Of a stretch of 64,000 nucleotides of DNA, positions 1,347 to 14,429 are shown piece by piece. Each line of letters opens with the position of its first letter. Position 1 is the first letter of the stretch. The notes beneath the pieces are model-generated. The model saw nothing but the letters and a program-made list of their open reading frames with translations, did not search any database and was not told the origin of the DNA. A program made the translations under genes and the position numbers. This DNA comes from Gammaproteobacteria bacterium (GTDB taxonomy: Bacteria; Pseudomonadota; Gammaproteobacteria; Acidiferrobacterales; SPGG2). The stretch covers positions 2,960 to 66,959 of the forward strand of contig JAOTYM010000007.1 of the NCBI GenBank assembly GCA_029861845.1, read 5' to 3'.

Positions 1347-3902
1347 ATGGCTTCCAGCGGTAGTTTTTTAGCGAAATTTGTCCTGTTTGGACGGTCTCCG
1401 AGCAAGTTTTGGCAGCTCGTTTTAGTCGGGCTGTTTGCGTTGTTTGTGGTTGCCGTACTCACATTGGCGATCACCGCTACCATTCTCATGCCTGGCCTAC
1501 CCTCGGTTCAATCGCTCTCCGACGAACCCCTCAAGGTGCCCATGCGAGTCTATTCCGCCGACGGTCGGCTGCTGGCCGAGTTCGGTGAAGAGAAACGTAT
1601 CCCCGTTAAGGCGGGCGAGGTCCCGGACCTGTTAGTCCAGGCTATCCTGGCCGCGGAGGATGATGGGTTCTACGACCATTATGGCGTCGATTTTCTAGGG
1701 ATCGCTCGCGCTGCCTGGTACAACCTGCGCACCGGTACCCATAGCCAGGGGGCAAGTACCATCACTATGCAGGTAGCGAGGAACTTCTTCCTGAGTCCGG
1801 AAAAGACCTACACTCGAAAGCTTAGAGAAATCCTGTTGGCCTTCAAGATCGAACGGCAACTCAGCAAGGACGAAATACTCGAGCTTTATCTTAATAAGAT
1901 ATTCCTAGGCCACCGCGCGTACGGGTTCGCCGCCGCTGCGCAGGTCTATTATGGTAAGCGCCCACACGAGCTCAAACTCCCTGAAACGGCGATGCTCGCT
2001 GGTTTGCCGAAAGCACCGTCAAGGAACAACCCACTCAGCAATCCCGAAAGCGCTATCGAACGGCGGAACTACGTCCTACAGCGTATGTATTCGCTCGGAT
2101 TCATCGGCGAGGAGGCCTCGGAGGACGCCAAATCGGCACCACTGACCGCCAGCAAACATGCACTGCGCTACGACGTCGAAGCGCCGTATGTGGCAGAGAT
2201 GGTGCGGCAATATGTTATTCAAACCTATGACAGAGACGCCTATGCGGGCGGATTGCACATCTATACGACCATTCGCGCCGATCACCAGGAAGCAGCGAAC
2301 TGGTCATTACGTAAGGGATTGCGCGCCTATGAGCGACGCCATGGCTATCGTGGACCAGCTGGGCACATCGAGGTCGACAGCACCGAATTCGACCAGGTTT
2401 ATTTTGATGATGCCCTCAAGGATTACCGGGTGGTCGGCGATTTGATGGTGGGCATCGTATTGTCAGTGGACGCGCAATCGGTGTGGACCTATACGCAGGA
2501 CGGCTACATCGTGGAGATTGGTTGGGATGGGCTTTCCTGGGCGCGTCGCTATATCGACGAGACATCGCAGGGTCCGCCACCAAAGCAAGCGTCGCAGATC
2601 TTAAGCCCGGGCGACGTTATCTATCTGGAATACGTTGAACCCGAGGCAGAGCAGGAGAAAGAACAGACAACGGCGGCCGAAGGGGACCAACAAGATCAGG
2701 GGCAGTGGTTCTTGGCACAGGTACCCGAAGTCGCGGGGGCGCTGGTCTCGATACGGCCGAGCGACGGTGCGATTCTAGCGCTGACAGGTGGATTCGACTT
2801 TCAACAAAGTAAATTCAACCGCGTCGTTCAGGCTGAACGGCAGCCCGGATCTAACCTAAAACCGTTTATCTATTCTGCGGCTTTGGAAAAAGGGTTTACC
2901 GCGGCTACTACAGTTAGTGGGGCGCCTATTGTTATCGAAGATGCCGGTCTGGAAGGGATCTGGCGTCCCGATAACTACAGTGGAAAATTCTTTGGCGATA
3001 CCCCCTTACGCAAAGCCCTAACGCTGTCACTTAATTTAGTTTCTGTACGTTTGCTTCGTGCCATCGGACCGGCGTTTGCGGCTGAACATCTACAGCACTT
3101 TGGTTTCGACAGCACCAAGCTACCGCGGAATTTGTCGTTGGCCTTGGGTAATGCTTCTGCCACACCGTTGCAAATGGCAACGGCATTCTCGGTGTTCGCC
3201 AATGGTGGCTACAAGATAGAACCCTATTTCATCACCCGTATTGAGGACGCCGAACACAACATTCTGGAGCAGGCAAACCCGCTCGTAATCTGCGCCGACT
3301 GCGAAAAAGCGACGAACCCACCGGTCGTGCAGATCAACGACTCGGTAGGTGGAACCGCCTTTGATGCATACTTACCACGCTATGCACCACGCGTTATCAG
3401 CGCCGAGAACTCGTTCATTATGACAAACATTATGAAAGAGGTGATTACGCGCGGCACTGGTCGACGAGCACTGTCGCTGGCACGCGCCGATCTTGCTGGC
3501 AAAACTGGAACCACCAATGAATTTCGCGATGCCTGGTTTTCCGGCTTTACGCCAGACATCGTTACCACCACTTGGGTTGGGTTTGATCAACCGAGGTCAC
3601 TGGGGCCCGGTGAAGCCGGTGCCAAGACAGCGCTCCCGATATGGATTGATTATATGGTAGTCGCGTTGAGCGGCCTGCCGGAAAAAACTTTACCGATACC
3701 GGAGAATGCAATCGCCTTCAGCGTAGATCGAGACACCGGTGAACCGACCGATCCGACCGACAACCGAGCCGTAGTGGAATTTTTCATCGCCGGAACCGAG
3801 CCCGTATTGGCGGATGATCCAGCGCCGGGAGAAATCGCCGACAGTACCTTCTCGGGTACGGTGACGCCGACACAACCAGAGATTCCCAAGGACCTTTTTT
3901 AG
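1347..3902 (+). CDS. mrcA: Penicillin-binding protein 1A (bifunctional transglycosylase/transpeptidase)
   Basis: 851 aa. GT51 motifs are EDDGFYDHYG, GASTITMQ and RKLRE. Transpeptidase motifs are SNLK (SxxK), SLN (SxN) and KTGTTN (KTG). There is an N-terminal membrane anchor. Confidence 0.92.
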   Translation: MASSGSFLAKFVLFGRSPSKFWQLVLVGLFALFVVAVLTLAITATILMPGLPSVQSLSDEPLKVPMRVYSADGRLLAEFGEEKRIPVKAGEVPDLLVQAILAAEDDGFYDHYGVDFLGIARAAWYNLRTGTHSQGASTITMQVARNFFLSPEKTYTRKLREILLAFKIERQLSKDEILELYLNKIFLGHRAYGFAAAAQVYYGKRPHELKLPETAMLAGLPKAPSRNNPLSNPESAIERRNYVLQRMYSLGFIGEEASEDAKSAPLTASKHALRYDVEAPYVAEMVRQYVIQTYDRDAYAGGLHIYTTIRADHQEAANWSLRKGLRAYERRHGYRGPAGHIEVDSTEFDQVYFDDALKDYRVVGDLMVGIVLSVDAQSVWTYTQDGYIVEIGWDGLSWARRYIDETSQGPPPKQASQILSPGDVIYLEYVEPEAEQEKEQTTAAEGDQQDQGQWFLAQVPEVAGALVSIRPSDGAILALTGGFDFQQSKFNRVVQAERQPGSNLKPFIYSAALEKGFTAATTVSGAPIVIEDAGLEGIWRPDNYSGKFFGDTPLRKALTLSLNLVSVRLLRAIGPAFAAEHLQHFGFDSTKLPRNLSLALGNASATPLQMATAFSVFANGGYKIEPYFITRIEDAEHNILEQANPLVICADCEKATNPPVVQINDSVGGTAFDAYLPRYAPRVISAENSFIMTNIMKEVITRGTGRRALSLARADLAGKTGTTNEFRDAWFSGFTPDIVTTTWVGFDQPRSLGPGEAGAKTALPIWIDYMVVALSGLPEKTLPIPENAIAFSVDRDTGEPTDPTDNRAVVEFFIAGTEPVLADDPAPGEIADSTFSGTVTPTQPEIPKDLF

Positions 3903-4540
3903 TGCATAAACCGAGGTTGGGGGACGCGGGCAAACAGCCTTCGCGTCTGGAAGCTCAGTTGCGACAACAGATTAGCGTTGAGGCCGCGCGCATCATGTCA
4001 GACGAAGGTGTGCGCGATTTTCAAGTCGCGAAGCGAAAGGCAGCTGAGCGACTTAATATTCCCGACAACAAACATATGCCGACTAACCAAGAAGTCGAAG
4101 AAGCGTTACGAGAGTACCTAGAGTTGTTTCACGCAAAACGATTATCGGGAACGTTAGAAACACTGCGTAGATGTGCAATCGAGGCGATGCGCTTCTTGGC
4201 CGATTTCAAACCCCGCCTTGTCGGTTCAGTACTGAGTGGCATTGTTACCCCCGAGTCGAGGATTCAGATTCATGTCTCGGCAGACACCCCAGAGGACATC
4301 GGCCTGTTACTAGATGACCACAACATACCATTTGAAGAAAATGACAAACGCTTGCGTTACGGCGGGGACCGTTACCAGACCTGTCCGGTCTACTGCTTCT
4401 CAGCTGATAACAACCCCATCGAGGTCTACGTCTTTGATCATAAGAAAGGACGTGAGACACCATTAAGCCCAGTGGATGGAAGGCCCATGAAACGAGCCAC
4501 AACCAAGGAGGTTGAAGAACTACTCAATGATTCGACGTAA
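3902..4540 (+). CDS. Conserved hypothetical protein, function unknown
   Basis: 212-aa ORF. The GTG start overlaps the mrcA stop (TAGTG), implying translational coupling. I recognised no diagnostic motif. Confidence 0.55.
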   Translation: MHKPRLGDAGKQPSRLEAQLRQQISVEAARIMSDEGVRDFQVAKRKAAERLNIPDNKHMPTNQEVEEALREYLELFHAKRLSGTLETLRRCAIEAMRFLADFKPRLVGSVLSGIVTPESRIQIHVSADTPEDIGLLLDDHNIPFEENDKRLRYGGDRYQTCPVYCFSADNNPIEVYVFDHKKGRETPLSPVDGRPMKRATTKEVEELLNDST

Positions 4541-4735
4541 CCGTGATCACTTTGCAAGACGATTGCGGCCGTTCTCATTGGCTCGGTCGAGCGCAGCCCG
4601 CACATCTGTCATCAGCATTTCACCTGCCCCAGAAGACTTCATCTCCGTAACGATCCAAGCATTCGGCGACAACTCGTCGTGAAAGTGACGGTATTGCTTT
4701 AAAGGAACCGCGCGTATTCGGCGACGGATGGACGT

Positions 4736-5326
4736 CTAATTAGTTAGCCGCAAAACCTGTATCAACTCATTGGCATCGCTGACCAGCGGGTGCTCAGGGT
4801 AGCGCTCGGCGAATAATTCGAGTGCCGCCACGCCTTCGGCGTCCTTTCCTAACTGGCCGTATGCCAAACCCAAAGCGAACTGCACGTTTGGATCTAAACT
4901 ACTAGCGGGGTAGGAATCGGAAAAAGCGTTTAACGCCTCGGTGGCTTGTTCGAATTTGCCCGCGTCGGCCAGCTCCACGGCATCGAGGAAGGCATCAACC
5001 TCCTTAATATAGTCAGGGTCTTCACGTCGGTCGCCTTTCCAATAGGGTTGCAATCCGCCCGTCGTGCTTTCAACGCCACCCACACCGGCGATCAGGGTGC
5101 GGCCACCTGTGCTCGTAGACTGCTCTGATCTGGGCACGTAACCCCTCAGTTTTGACCACATGTGATTCAATAATCGTTGGGCGGCGCCCTTGTCCTCGAC
5201 CACCTGGATCTCAACGTCGATAGCAGACGCACTCGTGTCGATCTGCGCGTGAACCAACGTTAATGGCATACCCAGCAGCCAGCAAAATAATAGTGTTCTA
5301 CCCATAGCGACTAATCTAATTGGCAA
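4736..5326 (-). CDS. Small secreted protein with TPR/YbgF-like C-terminal helical repeat
   Basis: 196-aa ORF with a TTG start at 5326. An alternative ATG at 5305 gives the signal-like MGRTLLFCWLLGMPLTLVHA. The C-terminal half has TPR-like helices (FEQATEALNAF...ALGLAYGQLGKDAEGVAALELF). It lies immediately downstream of the giant ORF. Confidence 0.6.
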   Translation of the reverse strand: MPIRLVAMGRTLLFCWLLGMPLTLVHAQIDTSASAIDVEIQVVEDKGAAQRLLNHMWSKLRGYVPRSEQSTSTGGRTLIAGVGGVESTTGGLQPYWKGDRREDPDYIKEVDAFLDAVELADAGKFEQATEALNAFSDSYPASSLDPNVQFALGLAYGQLGKDAEGVAALELFAERYPEHPLVSDANELIQVLRLTN

Positions 5327-8300
5327 GTAATTTTCCGAATGCCTCGTATTTCTTTCCTATGTTTTCATCGAGCGCTACCGCCTCGCCATGTTTAGCGACT
5401 GCCTCCTTCAAACTCCCGAGCTTGTAGTAGACGAGCGCGAGATTCACCTTGATGCCGCCATCCTTCGGATCGAGCGCTTCCGCCTCACGGTAGGCCCCCA
5501 AGGCACGATCGTAATCGCCCTTTATATAGTAGAGATTGCCACGATTGTTGTAGGCGGCGCTGTTTTGCGGGCTGACTTGCAGCACTTGATCGAATTCCTT
5601 CAACGATAAGTCGTGAAGACCATTGCTACCGTAGATGATGCCGATCTGCATACGCGCGTCGATATCATCGGGCTTGTTACGTAGCAGCGACCGGTAAGCA
5701 ACCAAGAATCGATCCAGACTCTTGGAGACCAGCACCGTACGCTCGCGTTCGACTAGCGCTTTGATTTCATTTCCGACCGGCGGTGTAATCGAGTACTTTG
5801 CTGGTGCAAGCGTCACCGGCACATACTTCCGCCACGCGCCCTTTAGTGGGATGACTTGCAACTGCTCTTGCTGTATCCACTTCTGATACTTACGCGCACC
5901 TTCTGCCCACGCCTCTGAAAATGTTGTTGATATCATGGTTGCCTCTAAAGGTATCCAGACCTCGCCATCTCGCACCACCATAAGATCATCCTGAAGGCTT
6001 ATAATATGCTTTTCTTTATCCGGCAGGCGCGTGTTAAACATGAGAAACAGGTGTCCGGGCACGTCAACCATCGCCGTTTCTATGCCGAGATTCTCGAGCC
6101 CTGCACTTAACAAGACTGATAGATCATCACAATCACCACTCTTGACCTTCAATGTCTCACGCGGAAACTGTACGTAATCTAGTTGGTCTTTGGTCAGTTG
6201 CGGAAATGGGCTGCTCGGGTCGACCACGTACTTCATGCCGTACGCCGACAGCACGTTAAACCAGGTCATCGCGGACACCATATTTTCGTCTAACGGGCCT
6301 TTTTCTGGTCGATAACTATTGATCGCCTGACGTACATAATCCTTCAGTATCTCGTCTGTGGGGGTAACAAACGAGCCAACCATATCTGCTTCTCGCCAAA
6401 CGATTGCATTCTTGCCATAGATGGTCATCGGCTGCGTAATGTCTACGAAGTGCCTCTGTCCCTCATGGTAAAAGTCGAGCTTGACCTCGACCTGGACACC
6501 CGTGTCCTCGTCGATATCACGGATCTTGTTATTGAAAGATGCCAACAAAGGCATCTCTGTCGTTTCATTCGGTCCCAAGACATCGATGCGACGGTGGGTC
6601 GGGAAATCCATGTAATCCTTAATATGGAACGTTAGTCGTAGATTCTTGTATTCAGCTTCTCCAGTGTTCACCACCTTGATGCTGCCCACAGGCGCGTTCG
6701 TGTATCGCTTGTACGCAGAAGAAAATGCCTGCTTAAACTGTAGATCGCGTAACACGACAAGCGGTGCATTTTGATCAAACTCCAGAGACTTCTTTTTCTC
6801 AGCGTACGCGGTATTCAACTGCAATCTGTTCTCTTTATTATCATCAAGCTCAACCGCTATCGTGAATTCTGCGATCGCCTGGTCGTAGTTATGTTTCTTC
6901 AGAAAAAGCTGTCCAAGCAGGCTGTGTGGTATTGAATTTGTCGGCTCTTTCAACGCAGCCTTTTGTAGGTGGCGCTCCGAAATATCTAGCACATCGTTTT
7001 CCAGATATAACCGACCTAGCTCAAGCTCAATGTCGGTCGACGTTGGATCTCGTGCAAGCGCTTTCTTGAGGTAACGAATTGCATCGCCATTCTTACCTTG
7101 CTGATGCGAAATACTCGCAAGTAACACGAGTGGTTCACTGCTATGCGGTTTCAATATGGCGGCATGCTCCGCTTGCTCGGCCGCTTCCTTTAAGAGCTCT
7201 AGTTTTGCTAGCGAGATCGCATAGCGATAACGTAAATTGTAATGATTGGGTTGCACAACTACTGCTTTTTCAAACTCGCGCGCCGCCGCCACATGATTCT
7301 GGCCTTGTTGTTCAAGAAGTGCGAGGCGCAGCCGTGCCTCGAATAATGCGGGCTCTGCGCTTATTGCTTGACGCAGCGCCGAACGGGCTTTAACTTGGTC
7401 TTGCAACGCTAGATAAGCGTCCGCCAAGCCAATCCAGGCATTGGTATTTTTCGGCTCCTCGTCCACCGCCTTTGTCAAAGACAACACCGCTTCTTGCGGA
7501 CGATTATTCGCAAGGGCAATAACGCCGAGGAGGTATTGCCCGGCTGCCTCTTGCTCGCGCACGCCCGACATGGACAGGGCGATTGCGCGTGCGCGCTTAT
7601 ACTCGTTCAGTTCTATGTAGCTTCGCGCCGCGCCCAGGCGTGCGTCACCATTTAGTTTGTCGATGGCTAGTGCTTTATTGAAACGCTCTAACGCTTGCAC
7701 ATGCTTAGCGAGCGCTTGGTGGGCGCGTCCGCTTTCGATCCAAACCGTGATGTTGTCGGGCACTACCTTGACCGCTTGATCGAACTGCGCCAACCCCTTA
7801 TCCACCGCACCGAGTTGAACATAGGTGTGCCCCAACAAGAAATGTGCGGACTCGAGGTTCGGATCAAGCTCTATCGACTTCTCGAGGCAGTTGACCGCGC
7901 CCGCCGTATCTTCGAGCTTCAAGCCGGCCTTACCGCACCACAGGTAGGTAGAGGCATCGGCTTGGTCGCGCGCGATTGCCTTATCTGCCACAGCTTTCGT
8001 CTCGATAAATTGTTGCGCGCCAAAAAATGACTCGGCTTGACGATTTAAGCCCTTAAGCTCGAAAGCAGGAATCTTTGCGAGTTCTTGGAAACGACGGATC
8101 GCCTGTTTATGCTTACCTTGTCGGTCTAGGCTAAGCCCTAGGTACTCGAGCACCTCACCGTGTTCGGAGTTGTCGTTGTAAAGAGACAGAAATATCTCGG
8201 CCGCCTCGGCGTACTTCTCGTCACCATACAAACCATAGCCGGTCTGGAACAGATCGCTTCCGGTTTCTGACGCCGGTCCTTCGACTCCGAAACCGCTTAC

Positions 8301-10352
8301 CGCTGCTACGCGGTAGTGAACATAGCGTGAAACATCGTCGTGGGTTATCGTTGCCGAGCTGTCTTCAATCTTACCAAGTTCTATGTACGGTCCGTCTTTT
8401 GTCGTCGCGGCATAGATGGCGTAGTGATCGACGAAGCTGGCGGCAGACGATCGCCACTTTAGCTCGGTATCACTCAACCCACCAGTGACAAGTAGGTCTT
8501 CGACCAATTCCGGCACCTGCAAGTAATCGAACACTTGCAGTGTTTGGCGCTTCTTGTCGTAGACATTGATCCGGGTCTTTTTCGAAGCTGGCACCATCAA
8601 TGACGTTGCATCCCCCAGGCCGATCGCCTGCTGCATCGCTGAACCGAATGTGAAAACTAGAGTTTTCCCGTTATAGACGTGCACCGTCTGCGGGTTACTG
8701 GTTGAGGCTAGGACGTACAGATTATCATCCTGATCAAGCGTCATCGCCCGGATCCTTCGATAACGATTGGACGAATCTTCGCCACCATTCAGTTCATACA
8801 CGAGTTCTTTCTCACGGGAAAACACGCGTATTCGCGGCGATTGATTGTCCGCGACATAGATATTACCCTTGGCATCGACGACGACAGCGCCAGGTCGGCG
8901 CAATCGTTGCGTCTCACCCTTGCGGTTGGCGAGTTTGTCCAGAAAAACACCGTCTCGCGAAAAGATCTGTACCCGCTTGCCGCTATCGGCAACGTAGATC
9001 TTGTCGCGCAAATAAATACCCGTGATGTTCTTGAATTGACCATCCTTAGATCCGCTGCGACCAAAGCTAAACCGCGGTTCGCCTTGATGCGAAAAAACCT
9101 TCAGTTCGCTGCCATCAACAATAATGACGTCTTTGTCGTCCACCGCGGCTAGTGTCGGCTTCTTGAACTTACCTGGTAGCATGCGCGCTACCTTGCCATC
9201 CGCCGATATAAGCGTGACGCTAGATTTCTCAACATTCAAACAAAGATGCTGGCCATCGGGTATTGAATAGGCAACACTACATTCGGCGCTGAGACTGTCG
9301 CCAAGCCTTATCCCCGGTAGGCGCAAATCCTTGCCGCGAGCTTGCCCTGTCACGCTCGGCAGGTCGTAGATTTCAATCTTATCGTTGCCTGAATCGCCGA
9401 CTATAAGCTGATTCGAAGGCGTCACTGCCAAACCCGAGATCGTGTGAAACTGCCCACGGCCCTTACCCTTGCCGCCGAAGGCATTAACAATCTCGCCGCT
9501 GTCACGATCGATCTGCATGATCTTGCCGTTTTCACCATCGGCAACGAAAACCTCTCCACCGTGACTAACCGCCATCGCGGCCAGGCGTGGTGGTTTGGGG
9601 ACATCAAGTCTGAGGTCTTCGGGACCGATGCGCTTTAGCAGCTTGCCCGAATGAGAATAGACCGATACGCGACCATTAGGCGCGCTATCCAAGACGTAAA
9701 CGTTTTCGTCCGTGTCTACTGCTATATGGGTAGGCCGGTTGAGTTTAACGGCGGGATCATTGCTACCGAAACTGAATAGAAAGACACCGTCTCGGCTATA
9801 CACCGAAATCCGGTTGTTGCCACCGTCGGCAACATAAAAACGACCCCTAGATGAATAAGCGATATCGGTAGGCGCGCTGAGGCGACCCGGTGTGCTCCCT
9901 GCCTCTGCGAAGGAGTATTGCAGCCTGCCGCTAGCATCGATCACGGCAACCGTAGCATCTACGGTATTGACCACAGCAATAAGCGAACTGTCTACCCCTG
10001 TAAGTCCACCGAGCCGAGTAGACCTGAAGGTAGCGTCTTTGCCGCCGAGCACAATAGACGTATCCGAAGAAGCGTCTAACTTGATTAGCCGGCCAGCCCT
10101 GCTATCTGTCAGAAATAGTGTCCCGCCGGCATCCATGAACATACCAGCGATTTCCGAGAACTTGGCTTGTTCGCTGGTATCAGCTGCGATCGCCCTGGAA
10201 AACTTGATAGTGGCATGCGAGGCTGTCGTGCAGAGCGCGCTGGTCACAAAAAGCGTGGCACAACAAAGGAATGCTAGCTTATTGGATGATTCTGGTTGCG
10301 CCCGACAGAACGTATAATACCTCCGACTAGACAGCCTGAAGTATACGTTCAT
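5316..10352 (-). CDS. Giant secreted multidomain protein: two NHL-repeat beta-propellers, an FN3/Ig-like module, a long TPR array, a transglutaminase-like (papain-fold) core and C-terminal TPRs
   Basis: 1678 aa.
- Residues about 24-47 form a signal/anchor-like hydrophobic segment.
- Repeated NHL-type blades (e.g. RFYVADGGNNRISVYSRDG, NVYVLDS, KIYVADSGKRVQIFSRDG, NIYVADNQSPRIRVFS) cover about 60-335 and 375-575.
- A TPR-like array covers about 705-1180.
- The motif KSGDCDDLSVLLSAGLENLGIETAMVDVPGHLFLMF has Cys1408 (codon 6129..6131) and His1434 (6051..6053), typical of the transglutaminase core.
- TPRs recur at about 1560-1670. Confidence 0.85.
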   Translation of the reverse strand: MNVYFRLSSRRYYTFCRAQPESSNKLAFLCCATLFVTSALCTTASHATIKFSRAIAADTSEQAKFSEIAGMFMDAGGTLFLTDSRAGRLIKLDASSDTSIVLGGKDATFRSTRLGGLTGVDSSLIAVVNTVDATVAVIDASGRLQYSFAEAGSTPGRLSAPTDIAYSSRGRFYVADGGNNRISVYSRDGVFLFSFGSNDPAVKLNRPTHIAVDTDENVYVLDSAPNGRVSVYSHSGKLLKRIGPEDLRLDVPKPPRLAAMAVSHGGEVFVADGENGKIMQIDRDSGEIVNAFGGKGKGRGQFHTISGLAVTPSNQLIVGDSGNDKIEIYDLPSVTGQARGKDLRLPGIRLGDSLSAECSVAYSIPDGQHLCLNVEKSSVTLISADGKVARMLPGKFKKPTLAAVDDKDVIIVDGSELKVFSHQGEPRFSFGRSGSKDGQFKNITGIYLRDKIYVADSGKRVQIFSRDGVFLDKLANRKGETQRLRRPGAVVVDAKGNIYVADNQSPRIRVFSREKELVYELNGGEDSSNRYRRIRAMTLDQDDNLYVLASTSNPQTVHVYNGKTLVFTFGSAMQQAIGLGDATSLMVPASKKTRINVYDKKRQTLQVFDYLQVPELVEDLLVTGGLSDTELKWRSSAASFVDHYAIYAATTKDGPYIELGKIEDSSATITHDDVSRYVHYRVAAVSGFGVEGPASETGSDLFQTGYGLYGDEKYAEAAEIFLSLYNDNSEHGEVLEYLGLSLDRQGKHKQAIRRFQELAKIPAFELKGLNRQAESFFGAQQFIETKAVADKAIARDQADASTYLWCGKAGLKLEDTAGAVNCLEKSIELDPNLESAHFLLGHTYVQLGAVDKGLAQFDQAVKVVPDNITVWIESGRAHQALAKHVQALERFNKALAIDKLNGDARLGAARSYIELNEYKRARAIALSMSGVREQEAAGQYLLGVIALANNRPQEAVLSLTKAVDEEPKNTNAWIGLADAYLALQDQVKARSALRQAISAEPALFEARLRLALLEQQGQNHVAAAREFEKAVVVQPNHYNLRYRYAISLAKLELLKEAAEQAEHAAILKPHSSEPLVLLASISHQQGKNGDAIRYLKKALARDPTSTDIELELGRLYLENDVLDISERHLQKAALKEPTNSIPHSLLGQLFLKKHNYDQAIAEFTIAVELDDNKENRLQLNTAYAEKKKSLEFDQNAPLVVLRDLQFKQAFSSAYKRYTNAPVGSIKVVNTGEAEYKNLRLTFHIKDYMDFPTHRRIDVLGPNETTEMPLLASFNNKIRDIDEDTGVQVEVKLDFYHEGQRHFVDITQPMTIYGKNAIVWREADMVGSFVTPTDEILKDYVRQAINSYRPEKGPLDENMVSAMTWFNVLSAYGMKYVVDPSSPFPQLTKDQLDYVQFPRETLKVKSGDCDDLSVLLSAGLENLGIETAMVDVPGHLFLMFNTRLPDKEKHIISLQDDLMVVRDGEVWIPLEATMISTTFSEAWAEGARKYQKWIQQEQLQVIPLKGAWRKYVPVTLAPAKYSITPPVGNEIKALVERERTVLVSKSLDRFLVAYRSLLRNKPDDIDARMQIGIIYGSNGLHDLSLKEFDQVLQVSPQNSAAYNNRGNLYYIKGDYDRALGAYREAEALDPKDGGIKVNLALVYYKLGSLKEAVAKHGEAVALDENIGKKYEAFGKLLAN

Positions 10353-10368
10353 AACATGCCCTCATCCC

Positions 10369-12603
10369 ATGCTTATCATGATTCGAGAGCCGCAGCGGCT
10401 CTTTGCCAGCTTTGTCCCTTCCATGATGAACGCTAGCAAAATCGGCTTCCTACTTACGGGTGTGGTGCTCATTATGTACCTACCCGGCGACCGGTTACCA
10501 GTCGGTATCCAGTTACTGGATGTCCTGGAATTCAGGACCTATGACATGCGGATGCGATCAGAGGGGATCCGTATCCCAGCCGGCGACGTAACTATCGCGG
10601 CGATAGATGAAAAAAGCCTGGCCGCAATCGGGCGTTGGCCCTGGAGCCGGCGCACGCAGGCCGAATTAATCGATAAATTAGACGCGCTCGGGGCGCGGGC
10701 GATCGCCTTAGATTACTTTCTCTCCGAATCGGAAAACAGCAAGCTACTGGCACATATCGGCCGACTTGAGGCTGAACAGGGGGCGACGGATAAGAGCAGC
10801 CCTTATGAGTCGATTAAGCGCGCGTTGGCAACCGATTCCACACTTGCACGGGCCATCGCCAACAGCGGTAAAGTCATACTCAGCATCGTCCTACTGTCCG
10901 AGGAGGAAACGAGCGGACGGCCCGCCGACGAAGCCGCACGCGCTCTGGATCAGGTCAAAGACCAGGCCATTCGTGCGATCCTGGATAGTGGCGATGGAAG
11001 CCTGGACTTTGAGATGCCCCGCACCTTCGGTGTGCTCGCTAACTTGCCGGAGATACAAAGCGGTGCCAAATACGCTGGACACATAAACAGCACGCCGGAT
11101 TCCGATGGCACTGTGCGTCGGGCGTCACTCGTGATGCAGCATAAGGGTCATTTTTTTCCGTCGGCGGACGTGCAGGCGGTGCGGGCGTACCTGGGTGTCG
11201 ATGACCTCTTACTACGCACTACCCAATACGGGATTACCGGTTTGGCGATCGGCAGTCGCATCATCAAGACAGATGAACGTGGTCGCGCTTTGATTCACTA
11301 CCATGGTCCCGAAAAGACCATCCCGACCATTTCTCTATCGGACATCGATGCGGGTACTGTTGATCCAGCCCTCATCAAGGGCAAGATTGTGATCGTCGGA
11401 CCAACCGCCAAGGGTATCGGCGATGTGGCAGTAACCCCTTACGGGACTGTTTTTCCAGGCGTAGAGATTCGTGCCAATACGATGCAAAACCTGATAAACA
11501 ACGACTTCATCAACCGTCCGGATTGGGTGACTTTGGTGGACGCGCTCGTTATCTTGGTGGTTGGGCTGTTTCTATCTTGGTTGTTGCCAAAAATCGGTAT
11601 GTGGCAGGGCGCAGCCTTGGCGCTGACATTCTTAGTCATACACACATTGGCTGTAGTTATCTTATTTCGTGCCCCGTGGCTCAATATGTTATGGCTCAAT
11701 ATTGTCTATCCTTCGGTACTCATCCTCCTGCTTTTCGTTTCCTCAACAATTGCTAAGTACGTAAGTGCAGAGACCGGGAAGCGGCAAATCAAAAAAGCGT
11801 TTCAACATTATGTACCGAGCGCGGTTGTCAATGACATTACCGACAATGTCGATCGACTTCGGTTAGGCGGTGATAAACGCGAACTCACCGTGCTGTTTTC
11901 TGATATCCGCGGTTTTACCGCTGTGTCACAATCACTCGCGCCAGAAGACTTGGTACGCCTTTTGAACGTTTACCTGACACGAATGACAGCGAAAGTGTTC
12001 GATCATGATGGCCTGCTAGACAAGTACATCGGCGATGCCATTATGGCTGTCTACGGTGCACCCATACACCGAGAGGACCATGCCGTGCTTGCATGCCGCA
12101 CTGCCCTGGACATGATCGACGCATTGGATGAATTACAGACGATCTGGAAAGCAGAAGGACTACCGATTCTAGATATTGGCATCGGCATCAATACTGGACC
12201 CATGGTAGTCGGTAACATGGGTTCTGAGAATCGTTTTGACTATACGGTTATCGGCGACGCTGTTAATCTGGGTTCTAGAATAGAAGCCCTTAATAAAACC
12301 TATGGCACGCGCATTCTCATAAGCGAGTTTACATACGAACAGGTGCGTAACGAGTTCCCAGATGTACGCGAAATCGATATTACGCGCGTTCGGGGGAGAA
12401 CCGAACCAGTAAGAATCTATGAGCTCATGCGGGCAGCCGAATATTCATCTATGGATTGGGTGGCGGAATATCAGGAAGCCTACAAGCTGGTGCGCAAAAA
12501 CGAGCCCAGCCAAGCGCTGTTGATATTCCAGTACCTGAATGAGACGGTGAACGATCCTGTTAGTAAGTACTACATGCAAAGCTGCCGGGCCGCCCTTGGA
12601 TGA
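10369..12603 (+). CDS. CHASE2 sensor-domain class III adenylate cyclase
   Basis: 744 aa.
- The N-terminal periplasmic region has the CHASE2-typical IAAIDEKSL..GRWPWSRR motif.
- A three- to four-helix TM block follows at about 385-465.
- The cyclase core has ELTVLFSDIRGFT, DKYIGDAIMAVYG and YTVIGDAVNLGSRIE.
- The metal Asp residues, Lys552/Thr626 and the Asn/Arg pair are all present.
- The start may be the internal MMNASK at 10423. Confidence 0.88.
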   Translation: MLIMIREPQRLFASFVPSMMNASKIGFLLTGVVLIMYLPGDRLPVGIQLLDVLEFRTYDMRMRSEGIRIPAGDVTIAAIDEKSLAAIGRWPWSRRTQAELIDKLDALGARAIALDYFLSESENSKLLAHIGRLEAEQGATDKSSPYESIKRALATDSTLARAIANSGKVILSIVLLSEEETSGRPADEAARALDQVKDQAIRAILDSGDGSLDFEMPRTFGVLANLPEIQSGAKYAGHINSTPDSDGTVRRASLVMQHKGHFFPSADVQAVRAYLGVDDLLLRTTQYGITGLAIGSRIIKTDERGRALIHYHGPEKTIPTISLSDIDAGTVDPALIKGKIVIVGPTAKGIGDVAVTPYGTVFPGVEIRANTMQNLINNDFINRPDWVTLVDALVILVVGLFLSWLLPKIGMWQGAALALTFLVIHTLAVVILFRAPWLNMLWLNIVYPSVLILLLFVSSTIAKYVSAETGKRQIKKAFQHYVPSAVVNDITDNVDRLRLGGDKRELTVLFSDIRGFTAVSQSLAPEDLVRLLNVYLTRMTAKVFDHDGLLDKYIGDAIMAVYGAPIHREDHAVLACRTALDMIDALDELQTIWKAEGLPILDIGIGINTGPMVVGNMGSENRFDYTVIGDAVNLGSRIEALNKTYGTRILISEFTYEQVRNEFPDVREIDITRVRGRTEPVRIYELMRAAEYSSMDWVAEYQEAYKLVRKNEPSQALLIFQYLNETVNDPVSKYYMQSCRAALG
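10386..10402. repeat. Perfect 17-bp palindrome AGAGCCGC-A-GCGGCTCT (candidate operator in the divergent control region)
   Basis: Read directly from the sequence. It lies between the giant-ORF start (10352) and the more plausible cyclase start at 10423. Confidence 0.3.
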
Positions 12604-12665
12604 TGCACCGGGGTAGTCGTCGACTGGGTGGCGGGCACGTATCGGTGGCGTAGACTCACCGCATC

Positions 12666-14429
12666 GTGAAACAACGCCTTTGCAAACTGCTTGCTCGGGC
12701 TCTGGCCGACTTGGCAAACCATGACACCCTTCCCGTCGGTTACGATGCTGCGGCAATTCATATCGAACGTGCGCGGCGCAAGGGCCACGGGGACTTTGCC
12801 AGCAATGTTGCGCTTACGCTCGCAGATAGAGCCAGCCTACCGCCACGCGAGCTGGCGCAAGCAATCGTTGAACGACTACCGGCGTCAGATTTTGTCGACC
12901 AGGTAGAGATCGCGGGTCCGGGTTTTATTAACTTTTTCTTGAGCCGTGCCGCATTTGAAGCGGTGGTGCCGGATGTTCTCGAGGCCGGCGACGCGTTTGG
13001 TCGTAGCGATATCGGTGCTGGAAAGAAAGTACAAGTCGAATTCGTTTCTGCCAATCCGACTGGGCCTTTGCACGTCGGACACGGCCGCGGTGCAGCGTAT
13101 GGTGCCGCGGTGGCTGATCTGCTGCAGGCAGTCGGCTTTGAGGTTCAGCGCGAATACTATGTTAACGACGCCGGGCGACAAATGGACATACTTGCCACCA
13201 GCATCTGGCTACGCTATCAAGAGTTGTCTGGTGAAGCGGTGCCATTCCCTGCCAGTGGTTATCGCGGCGATTACATTTACGACATCGCAGGCCAACTGTA
13301 TCGCCAACATGGCAAACGATTACAGCGATCTGCAAGCGAGGTCGTCCGCGATCTGCCGCTGGATATTTCGGAGGGTGGCGACGCAGAGGCGCGTATTGAT
13401 GCGCTTATTAGCCGTGCCAAAACCTTGCTAGGTGAATCCCAATACCGCCAAGTTCACAACTATGGTCTTGAAACCATTCTCGCTAGCATTCGCCAGGATT
13501 TAGAGCAATTCGGTGTACACCATGACGTGTGGTTCTTTGAGCGTTCCGTAACCCAAAGTAGTGCAATGAAGGATGCCATCGAGCGGTTGCGCGCTTCCGG
13601 GCATGTCTACAACAAGGACGCGGCACTGTGGTTTCGCTCGACCGATTACCAAGATGAGAAGGATCGCGTACTTATAAAGAACGATGGTCAACACACATAT
13701 TTCGCTTCCGACTTCGCGTATCACATAAACAAACTCGGACGTGGCTTTGGCCGGCTAATCGACATCTGGGGTGCGGACCACCACGGTCACGTGCCGCGCA
13801 TGAAGGCAGCTTTCAGTGCCATCGGTGAGGATCCAGCGAAACTCGACGTCTTACTTGTGCAGTTCGCAGTGCTCTATCGCGGCGGCAAAAAGTTGCAGAT
13901 GTCTACCCGCAGTGGCGAATTTGTGACATTGCATGAACTATGCAAGGAAATAGGGAAAGACGCAGCACGCTTCTTCTATGTTATGCGCAAATGCGAACAA
14001 CATATGGATTTTGATCTCGATTTGGCAAAGTCGCAAACGGCTGATAATCCTGTCTACTACGTGCAATACGCGCACGCCCGAATTTGTAGCGTATTCCGCC
14101 AGATGCAAGAGAAGAAACTCACACACAACCGTGATAACGGCAACGCCCACTTGGATCTGCTCACCGAATCACACGAGCGAGACCTGCTCGTGGCACTTTC
14201 ACGCTACCCTGAGGTCGTGGAGTCGGCGGCTACTGCACTCGAACCGCATCAGATACCACACTACTTACGCGGACTCGCTAATGGGTTTCATACTTACTAT
14301 AACGCCCATACCTTTCTTGTCGATTCAGCGGACCTACGCGACGCGCGCTTGAACCTGATCGCCGCCACTCGCCAGGTGATCAGTAATGGATTGAAGTTAA
14401 TAGGTGTGTCAGCACCGGAAAAGATGTAG
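12666..14429 (+). CDS. argS: Arginine--tRNA ligase
   Basis: 587 aa with a GTG start. It has [12 protein letters not shown], the HIGH-type motif [11 protein letters not shown] and the MSTR motif ([10 protein letters not shown]). Confidence 0.95.

Follow-up and report, generated by a model that had tools for sequence, protein, structure and literature searches.

The window analysed here is a stretch of 64,000 nucleotides from a Gammaproteobacteria bacterium of the order Acidiferrobacterales (contig JAOTYM010000007.1, positions 2,960 to 66,959), and the subject of this work is a group of three adjoining genes within it (Table 1). The first codes for a very large secreted protein that combines an NHL region, tetratricopeptide repeats (TPRs) and a transglutaminase-like module (hereafter "the giant" and "the module"), the second for a small secreted TPR protein just downstream of it, and the third, head-to-head with the giant gene, for a CHASE2 receptor adenylate cyclase. 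CHASE2 is a widespread bacterial sensor domain, present in cyclases, kinases, phosphatases and caspase fusions, and to our knowledge its ligand has never been identified. The three open reading frames (ORFs) lie exactly where a first-pass annotation of the window, made by a model from the sequence alone, had placed them. They are flanked by housekeeping genes: pilM, mrcA and a gene for a conserved protein of 212 amino acids (aa) on one side, and argS and a gene for an FtsN-like SPOR protein on the other. What is new in our analysis is that the secreted module family is found repeatedly next to CHASE2 receptors, regardless of the output domain that these carry, which makes it a concrete candidate for the missing CHASE2 input component.

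The giant begins with a single hydrophobic segment (aa 26-45), read as a signal peptide, which is followed by the NHL beta-propeller region, an unassigned linker, about 12 TPRs, the module, composed of an immunoglobulin-like (Ig-like) and a transglutaminase-like part, and three terminal TPRs. Full-length orthologues, about 1650-1720 aa long, were found in 75 loci. The module family comprises 2494 clusters at 50% identity, and no Pfam model is devoted to it. Its assignment as transglutaminase-like, already made in the first-pass annotation, is supported by a Cys-His-Glu triad (C1408/H1434/E1470, in the motifs SGDCDD, VPGH and WIPLE) that is invariant in the alignment of 21 homologues, down to 27% identity, and by a confident AlphaFold model (predicted local distance difference test score, pLDDT, 93), in which an Ig-like sandwich precedes an alpha/beta core. 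A Foldseek search with this model, a two-domain query in which the Ig-like domain dominates the top ranks, yielded weak PDB matches to PNGase (2f4m, E 1.7e-3), to a putative protease of Parabacteroides (3kd4), to factor XIII and to TG2, with TM-scores of 0.2-0.25. Against the assignment stand the Pfam transglutaminase models, which remain under threshold (DUF553, 17.9 bits vs 20.5; Transglut_core, PF01841, 15.1 vs 23). The predicted activity of the module is that of a peptidase or transamidase. As a separate observation, positions 11-292 (of 1903) of the NCBIfam model NF058533, "anti-phage protein ProA", match aa 1221-1494 of the giant with an E-value of 6e-12, far under the cutoff of that model; judging by this partial match, a module of this kind may also head a large defence protein. 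A defence function of the giant itself was considered and rejected: the NF058533 match is too weak, the PADLOC match consists of TPR noise only, and no relevant literature on ProA was found.

The small protein carries a signal peptide (MGRTLLFCWLLGMPLTLVHA) and a YbgF/BamD-like C-terminal TPR. In Pfam it is matched weakly by TPR_6/YfiO-like models, and in NCBIfam it stays below the cutoffs of both tol_pal_ybgF (39 bits vs 90) and BamD (31 vs 81), so far as these scores tell resembling CpoB/YbgF or BamD in its TPRs only. Its orthologues begin at a Met aligned with ATG 5305, and the two secreted genes are thus separated by a gap of 10 nt; the 11-nt overlap reported earlier derives from the longest ORF, which starts at TTG 5326. 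Under either start the giant and small genes are tightly coupled. The family motif G[IV]RGAE.T...PYWK.D is near-invariant in 62 small-protein sequences. The protein of the window reads AGVGGVE at residues about 80-86 (R to G, A to V), where the 82%-identical copy of a close relative (L001 in our numbering of loci) reads AGVRGAE; the difference may be genuine or may stem from the assembly.

The third gene encodes a clear member of the CHASE2 family (PF05226; 203 bits vs a gathering cutoff of 26.3, E 8e-60, aa 38-400) with a Guanylate_cyc output domain (Pfam, E 6.5e-25). The sequence also shows a hydrophobic stretch at the N-terminus, IGFLLTGVVLIMYL, under the threshold of the hydropathy window; together with the three transmembrane (TM) helices it would bracket the ectodomain, leaving the output domain in the cytoplasm. 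The residues D512, D556, K552, T626, N633 and R637, listed in the first-pass annotation, were all found at these positions and in the expected motifs (FSDIRGFT, DKYIGD, YTVIGD, NLGSRIE), and are predicted to supply the two metal-binding Asp, the substrate-binding Lys and Thr, and the transition-state Asn and Arg of a complete class IIIb-type (Lys/Thr) set. In a sequence search of the PDB the cyclase domain alone gave matches, aligning to class III cyclases of known structure, 2w01 and 3r5g among them. The AlphaFold model of the CHASE2 ectodomain (10495..11517, plus strand; pLDDT 85) found no structural relative in the PDB by Foldseek (best E 0.3, TM-score <0.26), and the fold search therefore offers no clue to the ligand; the CHASE2 fold, as modelled, seems to have no representative in that database. 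All of the closest cyclase orthologues have a length of 726 aa, which places the start at ATG 10423 (MMNASK) and sets the intergenic gap at 70 bp. This is the alternative start that the first-pass annotation had mentioned; the distance of 16 bp, which it gave first, is an artefact of the longest ORF. A reading of the cyclase as the PycC component of a Pycsar system was rejected, because no gene for an effector binding cyclic nucleotide monophosphates (cNMP) is paired with it, its neighbours being argS and the giant gene; the PADLOC matches to PycC reflect the generic cyclase domain only.

Table 1. Features of the three-gene locus (positions in the window)
Feature	Positions	Strand	Basis or remark
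Small secreted TPR protein, gene	4736..5326	-	196 aa as longest ORF (TTG 5326); more likely 189 aa from ATG 5305
Giant secreted NHL/TPR/transglutaminase-like protein, gene	5316..10352	-	1678 aa
C-terminal TPR triplet, giant aa 1541-1678	5319..5732	-	Pfam TPR_1, TPR_2, TPR_11, best at aa 1599-1646
Ig-like sandwich and putative transglutaminase/papain-like core, giant aa 1190-1540 (~350 aa)	5733..6785	-	triad, AlphaFold model
Triad codons of the giant module	C1408 6129..6131, H1434 6051..6053, E1470 5943..5945	-	
Central TPR array, giant aa 720-1189	6786..8195	-	Pfam TPR_19, TPR_16, TPR_CcmH_CycH and others
NHL / six-bladed propeller region, giant aa 60-620	8493..10175	-	Pfam NHL E 3e-25, SGL E 8e-10
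Divergent intergenic region, giant ATG (10352) to cyclase ATG (10423)	10353..10422	.	70 bp; orthologue lengths, alignment of 12 intergenic regions
Palindrome AGAGCCGC-A-GCGGCTCT, 8+1+8	10386..10402	.	17 bp
CHASE2 adenylate cyclase, longest ORF	10369..12603	+	744 aa
CHASE2 receptor adenylate cyclase, corrected gene	10423..12603	+	726 aa from ATG 10423
CHASE2 ectodomain	about 10480..11568	+	domain search
Three TM helices	about 11518..11772	+	hydropathy, aa 384-468, after the ectodomain
Class III cyclase domain	about 11878..12420	+	domain search

The organization of the locus was compared across 80 genome loci with module orthologues (51-89% identity, roughly 20 kb per locus), the nearest genome being an Acidiferrobacterales metagenome-assembled genome with a module identity of ~89%. 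In 70 of these loci the giant gene is directly followed by the small gene, and in the other ten the contig ends within about 700 nt; the two genes are a fixed pair. A CHASE2 cyclase adjoins the pair in 11 loci. Eight of them, from Acidiferrobacterales-like genomes (L001-L006, L008, L025), have the head-to-head layout and the full synteny of the window (argS/mrcA/pilM), while in three others (L065, L068, L069) the order giant-small-cyclase runs on one strand, the cyclase is 32% identical in its CHASE2 region and the giants form a separate clade. All 11 matches to the CHASE2 hidden Markov model in the 80 loci fall directly beside the pair, and none elsewhere. The head-to-head arrangement of small, giant and cyclase genes reappears with more divergent cyclases in L084, L086 and L087 (42-46% identity), and in L084, the one of the three annotated for its flanks, these are wholly different: a methylmalonyl-CoA mutase, an AMP-binding enzyme, an ABC transporter and TctC. 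The L084 and L087 giants have the head-to-head giants of Acidiferrobacterales as their closest relatives. The head-to-head pair thus persists down to 42-46% identity in the CHASE2 region and 42% in the giant, and the adjacency on whose conservation the first-pass annotation had staked its interpretation is retained in relatives.

The association extends to more distant members of the module family, of which five loci (about 30-37% identity) were sampled. In three of them a CHASE2 gene lies just downstream, on the same strand and within three genes. In L172, genes for a module-TPR protein, a 230-aa TPR protein and a CHASE2 protein with a SpoIIE/PP2C phosphatase domain follow one another with gaps of 54 and 7 nt; L170 has the same arrangement, with the CHASE2/SpoIIE gene split. 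The third instance, from a pig gut metagenome (L173-L175), consists of two tandem module proteins, a 137-aa gene and a CHASE2 cyclase, and since each of these module paralogues is fused to an N-terminal outer-membrane beta-barrel, the module would be anchored to the outer membrane there. The layout of a module protein, a small protein (TPR-bearing in most cases) and a CHASE2 receptor therefore recurs with either cyclase or phosphatase output. The arrangements number at least four: head-to-head (two contexts), giant-small-cyclase on the same strand, module-TPR-CHASE2-PP2C, and barrel-fused module with CHASE2 cyclase. As the output domain varies and CHASE2 is constant, the link seems to reside at the sensor and not in cyclic AMP (cAMP).

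We propose that the three genes of the window form a facultative extracytoplasmic signalling module, a reading to which we would give an even chance. In this scenario, the giant would be exported by means of its signal peptide and would work in the periplasm together with its obligate small TPR partner; the two would engage the inner-membrane CHASE2 receptor on its sensor side, as co-receptors or as partners that process or present the ligand, and the receptor would convert the periplasmic input into cAMP via its class IIIb-type cyclase domain. The invariance of the protease-like triad is one of the points in favour of this proposal. Not all parts of this proposal are equally probable. That a real functional link exists between module proteins and CHASE2 receptors we consider quite likely from their recurrent juxtaposition; whether it acts on the periplasmic input side of CHASE2 is a question on which we are evenly divided, and we doubt that the cysteine-protease domain generates the ligand. 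For the cue itself, by analogy with Sinorhizobium, we favour a protein or peptide, or else a signal of the state of the envelope. It is tantalizing to consider the module proteins and their small TPR partner as periplasmic co-receptors of CHASE2 domains in general, a class not recognised before, in which the Cys-His-Glu domain would cleave or cross-link an envelope or foreign protein, and the product, or the loaded TPR/NHL scaffold, would be read by CHASE2. Such a generalization is more likely wrong than right, but if true it would provide the first molecular handle on what CHASE2 senses.

Several observations weigh against a signalling role of the trio. For as many as 69 of the 80 pairs, no CHASE2 gene lies in the neighbouring 6-10 kb or so; these pairs reside in unrelated housekeeping contexts. 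Conversely, six loci with cyclase orthologues of 43-59% CHASE2 identity (L081, L083, L085, L166, L167, L168) hold the series pilQPONM-mrcA-hyp-cyclase-argS-SPOR without the pair; judging by these two sets, pair and cyclase have no strict need of each other as neighbours. Among 80 CHASE2 cyclases from metagenomes, those of 41% identity or less never adjoin the module. Two of the five distant module homologues (L169 and L171) have no CHASE2 gene nearby, L169 retaining a gene of the small family, and the module-linked CHASE2 domains are very divergent and do not form one clade. Finally, the window sequence is present in sediment DNA metagenomes only, and in no RNA runs. In L083 (8392..9000, same contig as L110), decayed remnants of the giant and small genes lie between hyp210 and the intact CHASE2 cyclase, namely the N-terminus of the giant (aa 65-114, 40% identity), a weaker piece (aa 429-462) and the 3' end of the small gene, which indicates that the pair was lost secondarily in that lineage. 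The divergence of the module-linked CHASE2 domains implies that the association is ancient or has been re-formed repeatedly, and either history argues for function. As read from genome context, mostly that of uncultured sediment bacteria, the link is facultative.

Among the alternatives, we rank highest a link on the output side, in which the cyclase would sense something unrelated and cAMP, via a regulator of the CRP/Clr type, would control expression of the giant-small operon as an envelope effector. There is a precedent in Sinorhizobium meliloti, where the CHASE2 cyclases CyaD1, CyaD2 and CyaK act via Clr to induce SMb20495, a large TPR protein of the periplasm, along with a FecR protein, neither of which is needed for signal perception (PMC5498481). 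The head-to-head layout with its shared region of 70 bp would suit co-regulation, and in L166 the slot upstream of the cyclase is taken by a cNMP-binding GGDEF protein, a plain cAMP effector. However, this alternative leaves unexplained the CHASE2-PP2C phosphatases that accompany the same module family and make no cAMP, and in four arrangements the genes run in one direction with tight spacing, as those for the subunits of a single system would. Moreover, no site of the TGTGA-N6-TCACA type was seen by eye in 10353..10422, and a tblastn search against plasmids returned no module homologue on pSymB, which puts SMb20495 outside the module family. We therefore regard regulation of the giant-small operon by cAMP as rather improbable.

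The giant-small pair occurs in about ten genomic contexts (MoxR-DUF58-TgpA, RuBisCO/LysR, PAS hybrid kinase, glgB and GspA/GspB among others), and it could be a self-contained envelope cassette, mobile between loci over evolution, that landed by chance beside a cyclase with which it shares no function. The six mrcA-hyp-cyc-argS sites kept without the cassette agree with this possibility, as does the lack of a CHASE2 neighbour for most cassettes. Yet it would require chance to have set module proteins beside CHASE2 genes, which are rare (by our estimate, roughly one gene in a thousand), in four or more different architectures, to have placed every CHASE2 match of the giant loci directly at the flank of the cassette, and to have kept the head-to-head pair through a complete change of flanks. 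Pure coincidence of adjacency is unlikely, and neighbours without shared function seem to us a slightly poorer explanation than control by cAMP. In its commonest site (L015, L020, L022, L026-L029 and about 25 more loci) the pair comes right behind lpxA in a cluster for outer-membrane biogenesis, rseP-bamA-skp-lpxD-fabZ-lpxA, and is followed by tsaB and truD, which hints at an envelope-related role independent of CHASE2.

The weakest alternative, that the palindrome acts as a shared operator or an RNA hairpin co-regulating both genes, is very improbable: it lies in the 70-bp divergent region, where the chance of such a palindrome is about 0.013 (12 of the same class, with 8-bp arms and a spacer of 0-5, occur in the window), and is kept as 7+3+7 in L002, but among the 12 aligned intergenic regions it is interrupted in L001, despite protein identities of 82-98%, and lacking in L003 and all more distant head-to-head loci, and it is neither followed by a T-run nor picked up by the terminator scan. 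In that scan of 4500..12800, counts of promoters and terminators equalled those expected by chance. The palindrome that the first-pass annotation noted in the shared control region is therefore real and correctly located in the divergent gap, but, being unconserved beyond L002, it is weak evidence for a shared operator.

The proposed signalling module can be compared with several described systems, of which those of S. meliloti, Campylobacterota and Burkholderia are precedents for extracytoplasmic partners of CHASE2 receptors and speak for the proposal. The cyclases CyaD1, CyaD2 and CyaK of S. meliloti are likewise inner-membrane proteins with CHASE2 and class III cyclase domains, with a large periplasmic TPR protein and a FecR protein in their pathway. 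They need the outer-membrane protein NsrA, and their signal is a protease-sensitive protein (PMC7529298); the requirement for a separate extracytoplasmic protein in perception and the proteinaceous nature of the signal resemble what we propose for the window. In contrast, the partner there is a beta-barrel and not an NHL/TPR/transglutaminase-like protein, SMb20495 is a target induced by cAMP and no part of the sensor, and gene adjacency of the type seen in the window is not described. In Campylobacterota, a CHASE2 cyclase, a cAMP phosphodiesterase, a FecR protein of the outer membrane and a TPR protein are encoded in a cluster, for which the authors propose one pathway (PMC9239204). The window shares with this cluster the CHASE2 adenylate cyclase and the TPR proteins, both giant and small carrying such repeats, and differs from it in that neither a FecR match in Pfam nor a phosphodiesterase domain match was obtained for any of the eight genes between pilM and the SPOR gene, these two included. 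In Burkholderia, the "BiofilmReg" operon combines a FecR/LysM protein with a CHASE2 histidine kinase and a response regulator (PMC5192318).

FecR proteins are also the recurrent neighbour in the 88 CHASE2-cyclase loci that we compared: in 13 loci with more distant CHASE2 cyclases (L106, L109, L116, L123, L130, L131, L135, L136, L140, L156, L162 and others), the gene just upstream of the cyclase and on its strand codes for a FecR-domain protein, while PP2C and FHA genes occupy the upstream side in a second group (L121, L145-L149 and others). As in the Burkholderia operon and these FecR-CHASE2 cyclase loci, the locus of the window places a secreted accessory protein beside a CHASE2 receptor whose output domain is variable; in the FecR systems, however, the accessory is a small FecR-fold protein and not a protease-like protein of 1678 aa with a TPR partner. 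From its gene content, the trio would thus belong to an already known kind, a CHASE2 receptor with an extracytoplasmic accessory protein, the type of accessory being different. The first-pass annotation had named TPR-bearing CHAT (caspase-like) proteins as recurrent neighbours of CHASE2 receptors in other phyla; these were not among the recurrent neighbour clusters of the 88 loci (singleton neighbours were not scanned), and the literature describes caspase-CHASE2 fusions rather than CHAT neighbours. The interpretation offered by that annotation hence finds partial support, in the recurrent adjacency to CHASE2 receptors, CHASE2-PP2C proteins included, and has to be weakened in view of the facultative link, the unconserved palindrome and the lack of CHAT proteins among the recurrent neighbours.

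A further parallel is provided by LapG and LapD, in which a periplasmic transglutaminase-like cysteine proteinase is tied to an inner-membrane cyclic-nucleotide receptor. The likeness to the window, a transglutaminase-fold periplasmic cysteine protease together with inner-membrane cyclic-nucleotide signalling, is one of description. Unlike the giant, LapG is small, and it is controlled by cyclic di-GMP (c-di-GMP) from the inside out, whereas the flow of information that we propose for the window would be the opposite.

Two minor observations concern the surroundings of the cyclase. The gene for the cNMP-binding GGDEF protein of L166 (6746..7732, minus strand) takes the place that the giant-small pair has in the window and diverges from the CHASE2 cyclase gene, and the domain composition of the protein suggests a relay from cAMP to c-di-GMP. 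The conserved 212-aa protein of the window (3902..4540, plus strand), which matches nothing in Pfam or NCBIfam and lacks both a signal peptide and TM segments, starts at a GTG codon that overlaps the stop codon of mrcA, and its gene directly follows mrcA in every mrcA..cyclase..argS locus, whether the giant-small pair is present or not.

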